Numbered from the stretch's first letter, positions 5,869 through 46,654 are shown. The stretch is 64,000 bases of DNA from Dictyostelium discoideum (GCA_000004695.1 CM000150.2:1440001-1504000), one strand, 5' to 3'. The notes: generated from the sequence alone by a model not told the origin. Program-made: numbers and translations.

Positions 5869-6438
5869 TATTATTAATAATTTATTATTTTTTTTTTTTT
5901 TTTACATTGCTTTTGGATTGTGTTGAAAAAAAAAAAGAAAAAAAAATAAAAAATAAAAAATTGACACTTTCCTTTTTTTCTTTTTTTTTTATTATTTCAC
6001 AGAATTTTTTTTTTTATTTTTTTTATTTTTTTTATTTTGTCTTAATTAAATCTCAACATTACCTTTTTATTTGTTTTTTTTTTTATAAGTTTAAATTTTT
6101 TTATATAAAAAATTAGTATTTTTGAAATAAAATTAACTGTTTTCGGGGATATCTTTTTTTTTTTTAATTTTTTAATTTTTTTATTTTTTTTCTCTTTTAC
6201 CTTTTGAAGATTTCAATCGGCAATGGTTTTTAAAAATAAATTTATTTGAAAAGCACCAAGCCAGATGCTAGTTATCAAAAAAAAAAAAAAAAAAAAAAAA
6301 AAAATGAAAAAAAAAATAAAAATAAATTTTTTTCTTATTTTGTTTTTTTTTTTTTTTTTTTTTTTTTTAATCAATACCTAAAGATAGAACGCACACACAA
6401 ATTTTTTGATTATTTAAATTTTTTTATTTTATTTTGAG

Positions 6439-9683: not shown

Positions 9684-9844
9684 TTTTAAAAAAAATCTGT
9701 AAAAAATTGATAAAAAATAAAAAAAAATTCACTTTTTTTTTTTTTTTTTTTAAAATTGTTAATCCCATAAAAAATTTTAAATAAAAATAATTAAGAACCA
9801 AAGTTTAATTTTTAAAATAGGTTGATGTGTTTCCCAACATATAA

Positions 9845-9907
9845 GTTGACCTTACAGCAATCTAATCACAAATTTTTACTTCACAAAAAAAAAACCCCTT
9901 CGTCAAC
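9845..9907 (+). ncRNA. Candidate Dictyostelium Class I non-coding RNA (about 63 nt)
   Basis: The sequence gttgaCCTTACAGCAAtctaatcac...ccccttcgtcaac contains the 11-nt CCUUACAGCAA motif characteristic of Class I RNAs. The 5' GUUGAC and 3' GUCAAC are perfectly complementary and can form the terminal stem. The locus is GC-richer than its poly-A/T intergenic surroundings. A DUSE-like TTCCCAACATA lies only about 10 nt upstream, which is not the canonical -60 position. Confidence 0.5.
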
Positions 9908-10371
9908 TGTCTTTTTGTAAAAAAAAAAAAATCCGAACTTCACTTTTCCATGGAAATAATTTGGTTTTTGAGAAAAAAAAAATATTACTAAATCATTTAA
10001 TTATTTTTTTAAAAAATATATTAAGGAATTATTATTTAATAAATTTATTTAATTTCAATATTATCACACTTAAAATTGTGTACCTCAAATAATAAAAAAA
10101 TTAAAAAATAACAGTTTGAAAATTTAAATTTAAAATAATAATTGCTTTACAATTTTAAAATTAAAGTTCATAAATAAACTATTAATAATAATTATTGTTT
10201 ATTTCTTTAATTGGTAAAATTGATTAATCTATATAAAACAAAAAAAAAAAAAAACCACCTTTCCTCCACTCACCAACCTCTCTACCTTCAAATTTTTCGT
10301 TTTATTCCAAGCTCAATCTTAACTCTTTACAAGATTTTAAATAAATATACATTTTATATATTTTTTTAAAA

Positions 10372-15101: not shown

Positions 15102-20921
<5,820 letters not shown>

Positions 20922-35253: not shown

Positions 35254-38148
<2,895 letters not shown>

Positions 38149-38643
38149 TTTTATCTATCTACATGTGTGTGTTATCTTTTATTACATAATAAAATAAAAA
38201 AATGATGTGAAAAGAAAAAATAAAAAAAAAAAAAAAAAACTAAAATAAAATAAAATGAAATCTGAAAATAAAAAAAAAAAAATAAAAAGGTTATAAATTA
38301 AACGAATTTTTAAAAAAAAAAAAAAATAAAAAAAAAAATTAAAAAATTGCATCATGATTAAAATAAGTTTTTTTTTTTTGTTTTTTTAACACAATCCCAA
38401 ATGTTTTGAAAATGTTGTAATTGAAAATTTTTATATAGGAAAAAGTAAAAAAAATCATTACCAGAGTGTTAATTTTTAATCATTTTTTTATTTTTTTTTT
38501 GGCTGACTACCGCCATTTTTTTTTTTTTTCTCTACTCAAAATTATAAAATTTATTATTAATTTATATTTTTTAAAAATAAAATACAACCAAAATATAATT
38601 ATAAATTTATATTTTATTTTTTTTCTTTAAATTTAAATAAAAA

Positions 38644-38855
38644 AGGGGGTGAGGCGCACTCTCGTAAATCTCTGAAGTTGTGCAATACAGAGCGAATGCG
38701 TAGAGGTCGAATGATGCAAGCACCAAACATATGACCTCACCTCGAAGAAAAATAAGTTTAATCGAATATGCACATCAACGTGTGATGGCAGAAAGAGATT
38801 AAGCTTTTTAGAACAGATACTACACATGATCAAAGCGAGACGCTTCAAGAAGGTA
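38644..38855 (-). ncRNA. U2 spliceosomal snRNA gene (copy A, minus strand)
   Basis: The reverse complement reads ...GCUUUGAUCAUGUGUAGUAUCUGUUCU..., matching the universally conserved U2 5' region including the branch-point-binding GUAGUA. An Sm-site-like AUUUUUC is present. The 3' end GCAUUCGCUCUGUAUUGCACAACUUCAGAGAUUUACGAGAGUGCGCCUCACCCCC resembles the human U2 3' stem-loops. A T-run follows. GC content is far above the surroundings. Confidence 0.85.
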
Positions 38856-38907
38856 CCTTTTCAAAATGAAAAAACTACTCTTTTGTATTTAAATATATAA
38901 TTTTTTA

Positions 38908-38916
38908 TTTATGGGT
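38908..38916 (-). promoter_or_regulatory. DUSE (Dictyostelium upstream sequence element) ACCCATAAA upstream of U2 copy A
   Basis: The reverse complement of tttatgggt is ACCCATAAA. It matches the [A/T]CCCA[C/T]AA consensus and lies about 55-60 nt upstream of the inferred U2 5' end. Confidence 0.6.
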
Positions 38917-38957
38917 TTTTTTCTTTTCGTGAAAATAGTGAAGTTAAAAATTTATGA

Positions 38958-38999
<42 letters not shown>

Positions 39000-39133
39000 T
39001 AAAATATTTTTAGAAAATTTTCTTAACTCAAATCATGGTGTTATTAATAATATTAAATGATGTATAAAAAAAAACTTTATTTTTATTTTTATTTTGAATA
39101 TTGTTTTTTTTTTTTTTTCAAGAATTCATGAGG

Positions 39134-39142
39134 ACCCATAAA
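39134..39142 (+). promoter_or_regulatory. DUSE ACCCATAAA upstream of U2 copy B
   Basis: The sequence gaggACCCATAAAaat lies about 55-60 nt upstream of the copy B 5' end, mirror-symmetric to the copy A element. Confidence 0.6.
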
Positions 39143-39195
39143 AATAAAAAGTTAATACTTTTAAATAAAAAAAGAAATAATTTCATTTTGAAAAG

Positions 39196-39407
39196 GTACC
39201 TTCTTGAAGCGTCTCGCTTTGATCATGTGTAGTATCTGTTCTAGAAAGCTTAATCTCTTTCTGCCATCACACGTTGATGTGCATATTCGATTAAACTTAT
39301 TTTTCTTCGAGGTGAGGTCATATGTTTGGTGCTTGCATCATTCGACCTCTACGCATTCGCTCTGTATTGCACAACTTCAGAGATTTACGAGAGTGCGCCT
39401 CACCCCC
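39196..39407 (+). ncRNA. U2 spliceosomal snRNA gene (copy B, plus strand)
   Basis: An exact inverted copy of copy A (arms 38641-38870 and 39181-39412 are reverse complements). Same conserved U2 features. The two genes are divergently oriented around a spacer of about 310 bp. Confidence 0.85.
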
Positions 39408-39678
39408 TTTTTTTATTTAAATTTAAAGAAAAAAAAAAAAAAGTAATAATTTAATAACAAAATTTAAGAAATAAAATTAAATAAAAAATTAAATTTATTT
39501 ATTTATTTATTTATACATGAATAATAAAAATAAGAAAGGGAGATAAGAACCTGTTTTATTTATTTTTTATTTTTATTTTTTTTTTTTATTTTTTTTTTTA
39601 TTTAATCAATGTAAATGGATATATTGACTAGAGTCATCGTTTTAATTTATAATTTAATATTTATTATTATTTTTAATT

Positions 39679-40043
39679 TTATAAAAGCATTTTATTTGCA
39701 CACCAAATTCTTTGTAAAATATCATTTTGTACATCATTTAAAGAACTCCAAAGTTCTCTTTGAATTGCAGGTAAACCATTAACTTCTTTTCTTTCACAAG
39801 CGATTAATAGGTTGTTTAAGATTGCGATAGTTTCTTCAGACAATTCAGAACCTGCACTATATTGAGAATGTTGTTCATTTATATCATTTACTAATTTACT
39901 AAGTTGTGCTTGTGATTTTGAAAAACTATCTTGTAAAATATATAATAAAAATAATGATACACGTGTTTCAATTAAAATAAATGGATATAATGACATACTA
40001 ACTGATGATGGTAATATTGTATTATTATTTATATTATTATTTA

Positions 40044-40080
<37 letters not shown>

Positions 40081-40888
40081 GTTATTAATATCATTAAAAA
40101 AATTATTATGATTACTATTATTATTAATTTGATCAAAACTACTATTAGTTGTTGTATTTAGTAATGATAATTGATTCATTCTAGATTCTAATGGTTGTGT
40201 TGTTTCACCTGCAATATTTACAATTAAATCTAAATAATCACAAGCACCCTTATAATCCCATTCCATAATTTTACAATATGCTGCTTCTTTTAATGAGTTG
40301 ATTGCACTTATTGGACTTTCTGTCCTTTGAATTTCTGCTGCCTTTTGAAAATATTCTGCACCTTCTTCTAATTTATTTAATCTTTTTAATATTGATGCCA
40401 TTTCAAAATATAATGTACCCATTATACTAAATCTTTTATAATTTTGATAAATCTTTTTTTTTATAAAAGTAAATAAAAAAAATAAAAAAATTAATATTAA
40501 TAAATATATATATATATAATAATGATGTTTTTTTTTTTTTAAAATTTACTTTTATAGCTAATAAATAACAATTAATTGCTTCAGGTATATTCTCTTCAAA
40601 TGATATTATTTCAGATTCATTTGTTGAAATTTCATTTTCCCATATTAAATAACCAGCATCAATATAACATGAGGCTTCTGCTGATGATGAAGCTTTAATT
40701 GCTTGTTCACATCTACCAATTGATAGACAACAAAATGCTGCATATATATTATTACCTTCACGTTTAAATGAATTCATTACTTGTGTATATTGATCAACTG
40801 CTTCTGAATAATTTGGTTTCCTCATTGGAAACTTTTTTTTTTTTAATTTTTGTGATATTAATTTATAAGAATCTATTAAATGACTCAT
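39679..40888 (-). CDS. Soluble NSF-attachment protein (SNAP)-like TPR protein, probably gamma-SNAP-like, with poly-Asn insertion; 2 exons: 40888-40550, 40452-39679
   Basis: Exon 1 (EASCYIDAGYLIWE...EAINCYLLAIK) parallels alpha-SNAP (DAATCFVDAGNAF...EAINCLMRAIEIY). Donor AAA|GTAAAT at 40549 and acceptor ...AAAAAG|ATTTAT at 40452 are in phase 0, continuing IYQNYKRFSIMGTLYFEMASILKRLNKLEEGAEYFQKAAEI (TPR-like A..Y.KAA). The acceptor is unusually A-rich, so the junction is less certain. Confidence 0.55.
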
Positions 40889-45130: not shown

Positions 45131-45859
45131 TTAAAAAACAAATTCACATTCCACGCCAATTGAATTACATAAAATTTTTTGAGAATTCTTTTTATAATTA
45201 CAAGTAATTGAACTATTTGATGTAAAACTTAAACCTTCATTATTAATAATACATTTATGTTTTAGACCTTCTGGTGTTGGTGTTGAGCTTAAGGTTGGTG
45301 TTGGTGTTGAGCTTAAGGTTGGTGTTGGTGTTGAGGTTGGTGTTGAGGTTGTAGTTGGATTAATTGGACAAGCATGCATTGAATACATTGAACATTGATA
45401 TAATGGAACATATGTATTAATTCTAATACAATCATAGATGTTTAAAGTTTTAGCGGATGGATCGCAGTATATGTCTAATTGAGTTGTACCATTTTTACCA
45501 CCATAATATGATAAAGAAACACCATTTGAAATTTGAGTAATTTCACTTTTATCAGTATAACCCATTGGTGGAGCAGTACCATCTTGTGGATAAAAAGCAC
45601 AACTTTGAGCATTGGTTAAATAGTTGTTACTTCCTAAACTATTACATCTTTGTGTATATCCACAAATATTGAAAAATAGTGAGAATGATTTTGGTGGATA
45701 ATCAATGAATGATCCTGAAAAATAACCACCATTTGGTAAAGTCAATGGTGATAAATCAATTAGACCTTGCTTGGTGTTTAATTTACACACATTATTACTA
45801 TAACCAAATGAAAAATTAAATAAATAACCTATAGTTAAAAAAATAATTATTTTATTCAT
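45131..45859 (-). CDS. Secreted MRH (mannose-6-phosphate receptor homology) domain protein with Thr/Pro-rich linker and small Cys-rich C-terminal module (intact copy, 242 aa)
   Basis: Signal peptide MNKIIIFLTIGYLFNFSFG. The MRH-like Cys framework and motifs are present: CKLNTKQGLIDLSPL, Y.FSLFFNICG, CNSLG, SCAFY, VSLSYYGG, LDIYCD, CIRIN, Y.CSMYSMHACP. A TPTPTLSSTPTPT linker and a C-terminal CIINNEGLSFTSNSSITCNYKKNSQKILCNSIGVECEFVF follow. The MRH call is from the motif pattern, not a search. Confidence 0.7.
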   Translation of the reverse strand: MNKIIIFLTIGYLFNFSFGYSNNVCKLNTKQGLIDLSPLTLPNGGYFSGSFIDYPPKSFSLFFNICGYTQRCNSLGSNNYLTNAQSCAFYPQDGTAPPMGYTDKSEITQISNGVSLSYYGGKNGTTQLDIYCDPSAKTLNIYDCIRINTYVPLYQCSMYSMHACPINPTTTSTPTSTPTPTLSSTPTPTLSSTPTPEGLKHKCIINNEGLSFTSNSSITCNYKKNSQKILCNSIGVECEFVF

Positions 45860-46654
45860 TTTTTTAATATTTATTGGGTGATGAAGAAAAAAAAAGTAAA
45901 GAAAAAAAAAAAGAAAAAAATAAAAGTTTAAAAAAAAAAAAAAAAAAAATTTCCCGAGTCACTAGGAAAAAATTAAAAAAAAAGAAAATTATTGTTTTAA
46001 TTTAATTCTTAAGAAAATTTTTTTGAAATTTTTATGGGTGGTGGATATTGGAAAAAAAGGAAAGAAGTGGATGAAAATATATTAAAAAATAAATAGAAAT
46101 AATAAAAAATAAAAAATGAAAAAAAGATTAAATAAACAATTAAAATTCATAAAAAATAAATTAAAAAAGATTAAATAATTAATTAAATAATATAATAATT
46201 AAATATTATTATTATTATTTTTCTCTTTAATTATTTTTTTGTTCACTTGTTATTATTTTCGTGTTTGGTTGTAATTATTTTTGTTTGAGGGGTGATTATC
46301 ATTTTTGTGTTTGGTTAAAATTATTGGAGGGTTATATATATATTTTTTTTTATTTTTTTTATTTTTTTATTTTTTTAAATCACTTTTCAAAAAAATTTAT
46401 TAAAATAAATAGAAATTAATAAAATAATATAAAAAAATTATTAAAAAAGATTTTTTTTTTTTTTTTTCTTTAAATTGATTGTGTTTAATTGGTATTTTTG
46501 ATTGTGAATAGTTTTTTTTTTTTTTTGTTTTAAAAATTATTAAAATAAAAAATAAAAAAAAAATAAAAAAGATAAAATAAAAAAATTAAAATCCAAAAAA
46601 AGATTAAAATAAATATTTAAAATTAAATAATATTTTATTTTAATGATTGGTTTA

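Follow-up and report, generated by a model that had tools for sequence, protein, structure and literature searches.

Apparent concerted evolution between the arms of a head-to-head U2 snRNA gene pair in Dictyostelium discoideum

Genes for U2 small nuclear RNA (snRNA) and their promoter have been described in Dictyostelium discoideum since 2004-2006 (RF00004; Aspegren et al. 2004, Hinas et al. 2006, cited in PMC3188802 and PMC7919456). D. discoideum U2 is reported as expressed in the literature cited by the latter two papers, and dictyBase lists 18 snRNA (rnu) genes (supplement of PMC3188802). The upstream sequence element of Dictyostelium (DUSE), with the motif [AT]CCCA[AT]AA, is found upstream of many non-coding RNA genes of D. 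discoideum, at a distance of about 60-63 nt (PMC3188802, PMC7919456). Here we describe two U2 genes arranged head to head in a 64,000-nt stretch of chromosome 1 of D. discoideum AX4 (GCA_000004695.1 CM000150.2:1440001-1504000), the whole of which is called the window and to which all coordinates refer unless another assembly is named. The pair is real and far beyond chance. It consists of two ordinary, canonical U2 (rnu) genes of a class already described, which almost certainly belong to the 17-18 snRNA genes annotated so far, and with a full-length model match and a DUSE about 60 nt upstream they show no substantive difference from the U2 genes known from the same organism; as a genome feature, the locus is routine. 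The subject of this analysis is the likeness of its two arms, which a comparison of eight genomes suggests is kept up by recombination between them.

Two kinds of described systems come closest in this respect. In the human RNU2 tandem array, paralogues within a species are closer to each other than orthologues between species, through gene conversion or unequal exchange (PMC3795722). The D. discoideum pair appears to behave likewise but has only two copies, which are inverted and not tandem, and the homogenised part covers about 210 transcribed nt and a few tens of bases, and the promoters escape it. In human Y-chromosome palindromes, plastid inverted repeats and the yeast 2-micron plasmid, intramolecular recombination keeps the two inverted arms identical, and the unique spacer between them is turned round when a crossover takes place; arm-to-arm conversion and spacer flipping are classical behaviour of palindromes. 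Concerted evolution of snRNA genes is equally classical. We have seen neither of these described for the inverted U2 unit of two copies found in the D. discoideum complex, and the advance is an incremental one.

The U2 gene pair and its RNA

The whole window was scanned with covariance models (cmscan, Rfam 15). The U2 model (RF00004, gathering score 46 bits) gave two significant full-length matches on opposite strands, both above the gathering score, which bears out the original prediction of two divergent, head-to-head U2 genes and completes the scan it had proposed. No further U2-like sequence was found in the 64-kb window by a low-threshold Rfam scan (E up to 0.1). The two genes, and two elements of the RNA as located in copy B, are as follows.

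38649-38856, minus strand: U2 snRNA gene, copy A (RF00004, 91.1 bits, E 8.4e-17, model positions 1-192 of 192)
39196-39403, plus strand: U2 snRNA gene, copy B (RF00004, 95.4 bits, E 7.7e-18, model positions 1-192 of 192)
39227-39234, plus strand: branch-point recognition sequence GUGUAGUA of copy B (Rfam alignment)
39299-39305, plus strand: Sm-like site AUUUUUC of copy B (U2 positions 104-110, within the unpaired bases that separate stem-loop IIb from stem-loop III)

Copy A adjoins an open reading frame (ORF) of 964 amino acids and copy B adjoins a SNAP/TPR-like gene. The repeat search placed the pair in an inverted repeat, I1, with arms at 38605-38910 and 39142-39447 that are 306 nt long and 92% complementary. 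The repeat had been called perfect, which is not the case: the base-by-base comparison of the arms, also proposed in the original prediction, showed the copies to be identical at 207 of 208 transcribed positions, the sole coding difference being U2 position 49 (A at 38808 in copy A, G at 39244 in copy B). Beyond about -15 and about +35 the likeness of the arms in the window dropped fast. The G+C content was 42% in the U2 genes versus 11-14% in the spacer and outer flanks.

The invariant consensus stretch for branch-point recognition, GUGUAGUAUCUGUUCU, was matched in the Rfam alignment, with GUAGUA present after stem-loop I, and stem-loops I, IIa, IIb, III and IV were all formed when the structure was mapped on the Rfam alignment. 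All of the RNA features originally named (the conserved GUAGUA, an Sm-like site and U2-like 3' stem-loops) were located in this way, although the base following the U run of the Sm-like site is C, where the usual base is G. In an alignment of six distinct U2 sequences from relatives, 86% of the pair cells of the 45 model pairs were standard, versus 36-54% when the partners were slid by 1-3 columns, and D. dimigraforme carried one compensatory change in stem III (G-C to A-U). A covariation statistic would need more variation than these sequences offer, so the identification as U2 is carried by the covariance-model score.

Rfam model position 1 fell 60-62 nt downstream of the DUSE, which argues that these are canonical U2 genes and not 5'-extended variants. 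Divergent U2 variants with an extra 5' stem-loop have reportedly been described, and the present two genes differ from them in having no such stem-loop. Each gene would yield a U2 RNA of about 208-212 nt with the GUAGUA stretch, the Sm-like site and all five stem-loops named above. By what is established for U2, this RNA would be made by polymerase II, capped, assembled with Sm proteins and paired to intron branch sites.

The arms and their spacer in eight genomes

Syntenic intervals were located in seven further assemblies via the neighbouring proteins and gave, with the window, eight genomes and 16 U2 genes. The assemblies were three of D. discoideum (GCA_054859355.1, L001, also FIW; GCA_054859385.1, L007; GCA_054883475.1, L008), one of D. 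cf. discoideum (GCA_054859205.1, L004), two of D. citrinum (L002 and L006) and one of D. dimigraforme (L005). A head-to-head U2 pair was present between the SNAP/TPR-like gene and the large ORF in 7 of the 7. No U2 gene was found beside the SNAP/TPR-like gene in the syntenic interval of D. purpureum (L003 11179-13312, GL871199.1), so the pair at this site either exists in the D. discoideum/citrinum/dimigraforme group alone or has disappeared from D. purpureum. A metagenome scan with GATCATGTGTAGTATCTGTTCT returned 95 loci of 37-64% G+C, with matches confined to the 5' part of U2 that is conserved universally; there was no dictyostelid and no pair among them.

Across species, the 75 nt upstream of the genes fell into two types, type A beside the large ORF and type B beside the SNAP-like gene. 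Within a genome the two types differed at 27-30 positions, compared to 19 differences within a type between AX4 and D. dimigraforme. As types A and B are common to D. discoideum, D. citrinum and D. dimigraforme, the two-copy state predates these species.

The coding arms were identical within six of the eight genomes, and nine coding columns had lineage-specific states common to both arms of a genome. Five of these were seen in D. dimigraforme alone (C18T, column 85 deleted, G121A, C152T and C153T), one was an extra A at column 125 in both arms of D. citrinum and of D. dimigraforme, and three were found in both arms of D. cf. discoideum (G122A, T127C and C181T). The 3' tail likewise had variants common to the two arms of a genome: FIR and FIY carried CCACCCC, and FIY carried ATTAAAATTT. 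Identical new states in two old paralogues do not come from purifying selection, and they argue for recombination between the copies. The test for gene conversion that had been proposed for the pair, run here across the eight genomes, was therefore positive: both arms changed together within lineages despite the age of the promoter types.

Changes in one arm only were found as well, one in copy A of AX4 and three in copy B of FIW (L001), which indicates that homogenisation is episodic and that the arms can drift between events. The homogenised tract is approximately the transcribed region and a few tens of bases, with differences between the arms resuming at -3, -4 and -7 on one side and at about +10 to +35 on the other. 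Together, the sequences point to concerted evolution of the arms. The duplication dates from before D. discoideum, D. citrinum and D. dimigraforme separated; recombination from arm to arm (gene conversion) would keep the transcribed parts and a few flank bases near-identical, and an occasional resolution as a crossover would flip the promoter spacer.

A spacer in the flipped orientation was observed in D. cf. discoideum. In L004, the type B promoter lies beside the large ORF and the type A promoter beside the SNAP-like gene, and the spacer (5927-6227 of that interval, 301 bp) aligned to AX4 only when reverse-complemented (score 206.5 versus 89). The spacers of L001 and L007 aligned to AX4 in the syntenic orientation (258 versus 85-90). 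The outer flanks of L004 are still syntenic. The D. citrinum spacer has the AX4 orientation, so the inversion in L004 is derived. An inverted spacer with its flanks in place is what a crossover between inverted arms would leave, which argues that the arms recombine with each other, and L004 is a candidate for an inverted-repeat-mediated flip of the promoter spacer.

We give about even chances to the proposal that the U2 pair is a miniature recombination-active palindrome, in which arms of about 270 nt have been homogenised by arm-to-arm conversion across the D. discoideum complex while the promoters had separate histories, and crossovers have flipped the spacer and swapped the promoters. Compared to the larger palindromes named above, the U2 pair is minute, its arms being about 270-300 nt long and its spacer about 230-340 bp; it implies no dedicated recombinase, and its spacer flip is a fixed difference in one assembly, not a case of coexisting isomers.

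The alternative that survives best, although we consider it unlikely, is that a third, master U2 locus homogenises both arms by ectopic conversion. With 18 rnu genes in dictyBase (PMC3188802 supplement), other U2-type loci exist and could serve as such a source, but the window holds no other U2 sequence, and the inversion breakpoints of L004 lie within the arms, which requires direct recombination from arm to arm. The proximity of the arms, which are separated by 339 bp, also favours exchange within the locus.

Promoters, spacer and 3' flanks

The elements located around the two genes are listed below, with distances counted from the Rfam-aligned RNA start.

38909-38916, minus strand: DUSE ACCCATAA of copy A (motif search; first base at -60 from the Rfam start)
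39134-39141, plus strand: DUSE ACCCATAA of copy B (motif search; first base at -62 from the Rfam start)
38857-38871, minus strand: start-proximal element TTTCATTTTGAAAAG of copy A, -15 to -1, the same in both arms
39181-39195, plus strand: start-proximal element TTTCATTTTGAAAAG of copy B, -15 to -1, the same in both arms
38917-39133, no strand: central spacer between the DUSEs, 217 bp, AT-rich, with a T tract of 33 nt at 38961-38993
38617-38648, minus strand: 3' flank of copy A (CCCC, T6, ATTTAAATTTAAAG at 38625-38638, A run), candidate region of 3'-end formation
39404-39442, plus strand: 3' flank of copy B (CCCC, T7 at 39408-39414, ATTTAAATTTAAAG at 39415-39428, A run)

The 9-mer ACCCATAAA was found at 38908-38916 (minus strand) and 39134-39142 (plus strand), exactly where the original prediction had placed an upstream element, and it fits the published DUSE in motif and distance. 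It was invariant, at -60 to -62, in 16 of the 16 U2 genes of the eight genomes. The only other conserved block in the alignment of the 75 upstream nt was TTCATTT[T/A]GA..AG, which adjoins the start and was kept there in the 14 aligned copies, while the positions from -16 to -50 had diverged. From these alignments we infer that each U2 gene has a two-part promoter, made up of the DUSE and a 15-nt start-proximal element of putative function. A need for the DUSE in U2 transcription is indirectly suggested by its persistence as an invariant block within otherwise diverged upstream DNA.

In the window as a whole, [AT]CCCA[AT]AA occurred 16 times versus 20.8 expected and was not enriched. A single occurrence of the 8-mer is therefore meaningless, and the significance of the DUSE at the U2 genes comes from its position and conservation. 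A third exact ACCCATAA is present at 46032-46039 on the minus strand, about 170 nt upstream of the ATG of an ORF at 45131-45859. Nothing RNA-like was found 60 nt downstream of it, where the DNA has just a short stretch that contains GC and then a long run of T. Given the lack of enrichment, this occurrence is probably due to chance.

The spacer between the two 5' ends measured 339 bp (38857-39195) and not the roughly 310 bp first given. It had also been described as a compact, symmetric bidirectional promoter. The symmetry holds for the outer part of each side, which consists of the DUSE and the 15-nt element adjoining the start; it does not extend to the 217-bp centre, where the alignment of the arms showed no arm-to-arm homology, and what is present is two separate DUSE promoters. 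Among the relatives, the spacer was 301, 309, 339-344, 560 or 621 bp long and aligned poorly between species. No common elements conserved in sequence and spacing were found between the starts, nor any symmetry or conservation between the DUSEs. Each gene having its own DUSE and its own start-proximal element, with an unsymmetric centre and a spacer of variable length, the arrangement is best read as two independent promoters placed back to back, with the centre as unconserved filler and not a shared regulatory core.

That the spacer is instead one shared bidirectional promoter, with elements common to both genes, is improbable. The genes are only 339 bp apart, their DUSEs are symmetric, and the long T tract in mid-spacer could keep the region nucleosome-free for both. 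A shared promoter does not, however, sit well with a complete set of elements for each gene, with a centre that lacks arm symmetry or with spacers that range from 301 to 621 bp among relatives and align poorly between species. If the inversion in L004 is real, the spacer also functions in either orientation.

The two independent promoters inferred for the pair share features with those of other small RNA genes. As in the metazoan (proximal and distal sequence element, PSE/DSE) and plant (upstream sequence element, USE, with TATA) snRNA promoters, the start of the RNA gene is set by a compact element upstream, at a constant spacing of about -55 to -70, but the DUSE is unrelated in sequence, and no enhancer-like distal element is conserved at the U2 pair. 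The DUSE-type Class I RNA genes of Dictyostelia carry the same [AT]CCCA[AT]AA, with its CCC, about 60 nt before the start (PMC7919456). The U2 genes differ from these in having no TGTG box and, in its place, the common TTCATTT[T/A]GA..AG adjoining the start; the Class I genes are thought to be transcribed by polymerase III, whereas U2 is most likely a polymerase II gene. One such gene is present elsewhere in the window.

9845-9909, plus strand: Class I RNA gene (RF01414, 53.1 bits), D. discoideum type

Its DUSE, TCCCATAA, occupies 9763-9770; a TGTG-like box with the sequence TGATGTG follows 60 nt further on, at 9823-9829, and past the 3' end there is a T run. This layout (9763-9916) agrees with that of the D. 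discoideum Class I genes in PMC7919456.

Both U2 genes end in ...CCUCAC, followed by CCCC, a run of six or seven T, ATTTAAATTTAAAG and an A run, and the arms are alike to about +35. The 3' block was kept in most of the 16 copies, but D. citrinum and D. dimigraforme have a degenerate form of it in their B copies. It may contribute to 3'-end formation, a suggestion made with low confidence. A metazoan-type 3' box in ATTTAAATTTAAAG was considered and rejected as more than a low-confidence candidate, given the looseness of the resemblance, the AT-rich genome and the degeneration in the B copies of two relatives.

Selection, the position 49 mismatch and neighbouring features

Our best explanation of the locus, held with high confidence, is that it is a canonical U2 pair in which each gene has its own promoter and the arms are kept alike by gene conversion, probably from arm to arm. 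Several observations weigh against it, beginning with the further U2-type loci implied by the number of rnu genes. The spacer inversion was seen in a single assembly (L004). The sequences vary little (12 variable coding columns), and the structure statistics alone were not significant. Stem IIa contains a mispair in copy A of the AX4 reference. Finally, the T6-T7 run directly after each gene would also suit a polymerase III terminator. The T5 within the Sm site would, on the other hand, risk premature termination by that enzyme, which argues against polymerase III; in most eukaryotes, U2 is made by polymerase II.

Strong purifying selection on U2 could by itself make the arms alike, with no recombination between the copies. 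U2 is highly constrained, and just 12 of the 209 coding columns were variable among 14 copies while the flanks diverged freely. We nevertheless judge this account very unlikely, as selection cannot put the same new change into both arms, and nine coding columns and several 3'-tail variants show such changes. The promoter types indicate that the arms had separated before these lineages, and changes in a single arm do occur.

The mispair at position 49 of copy A can be placed more closely. A49 disrupts the G49-C66 pair of stem-loop IIa, and the Rfam score of copy A is 4.3 bits lower. In L008, a near-identical D. discoideum assembly in which 3 of 1530 intergenic bases differ from the window, both copies have G49, so the A at 38808 is either a private AX4 mutation or an error in the reference. 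The copy B sequence is also that of both copies in FIR and FIT and of copy A in FIW.

The ORFs that overlap the U2 genes (71 and 80 amino acids) have TTG starts and are mirror images of each other owing to the repeat, and the 80-amino-acid one had no relative among 5.8 billion predicted proteins. A protein-coding reading of the locus was rejected on these grounds, and the ORF-track proteins are artefacts, as had been supposed. That one or both copies are silent pseudogenes, or that the region encodes these small proteins, is the least credible alternative, since the mispair and lower score of copy A and the overlapping ORFs that could be cited for it are offset by full-length copies whose DUSE is intact and correctly spaced in eight genomes, by the absence of A49 from L008, and by the TTG-started, mirrored nature of ORFs of which the longer is without relatives.

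Some neighbouring features were recorded beside the pair. The 964-amino-acid ORF (35254-38148, minus strand) has an orthologue of 885 amino acids in FIW, for which no Pfam domain is on record; the two differ mostly in the length of two poly-asparagine tracts, with about 2% substitutions in addition, a divergence that seems large for two assemblies labelled D. discoideum. The SNAP/TPR-like neighbour (39679-40422, minus strand) had its best match in D. citrinum (93%), and no AX4 protein of 100% identity was returned; the AX4 model of this gene may differ or be missing from the protein collection. In the D. purpureum interval, the downstream neighbour is a different gene, with a LIM domain. Four ORFs of the window are exact D. 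discoideum AX4 proteins, namely DDB_G0268096, mitochondrial asparagine-tRNA ligase, DDB_G0268570 and part of mitochondrial DNA polymerase A. A match to mir-598 at 18390-18534 (minus strand), inside an ORF at 17802-20921, was sub-threshold (35 bits versus a gathering score of 69, E 0.0013) and was treated as chance.

For the biology of the organism, the U2 pair offers a clean two-copy case of what appears to be concerted evolution limited to the transcribed region. The footprint left by 16 promoters outlines a minimal U2 promoter, a DUSE at -60 to -62 with a putative 15-nt start-proximal element, which may be usable for small-RNA expression cassettes in Dictyostelium. If both orientations of the spacer coexist in populations, the pair would offer a very small, tractable model for the dynamics of palindromes, in a eukaryote that is haploid and open to genetic manipulation.

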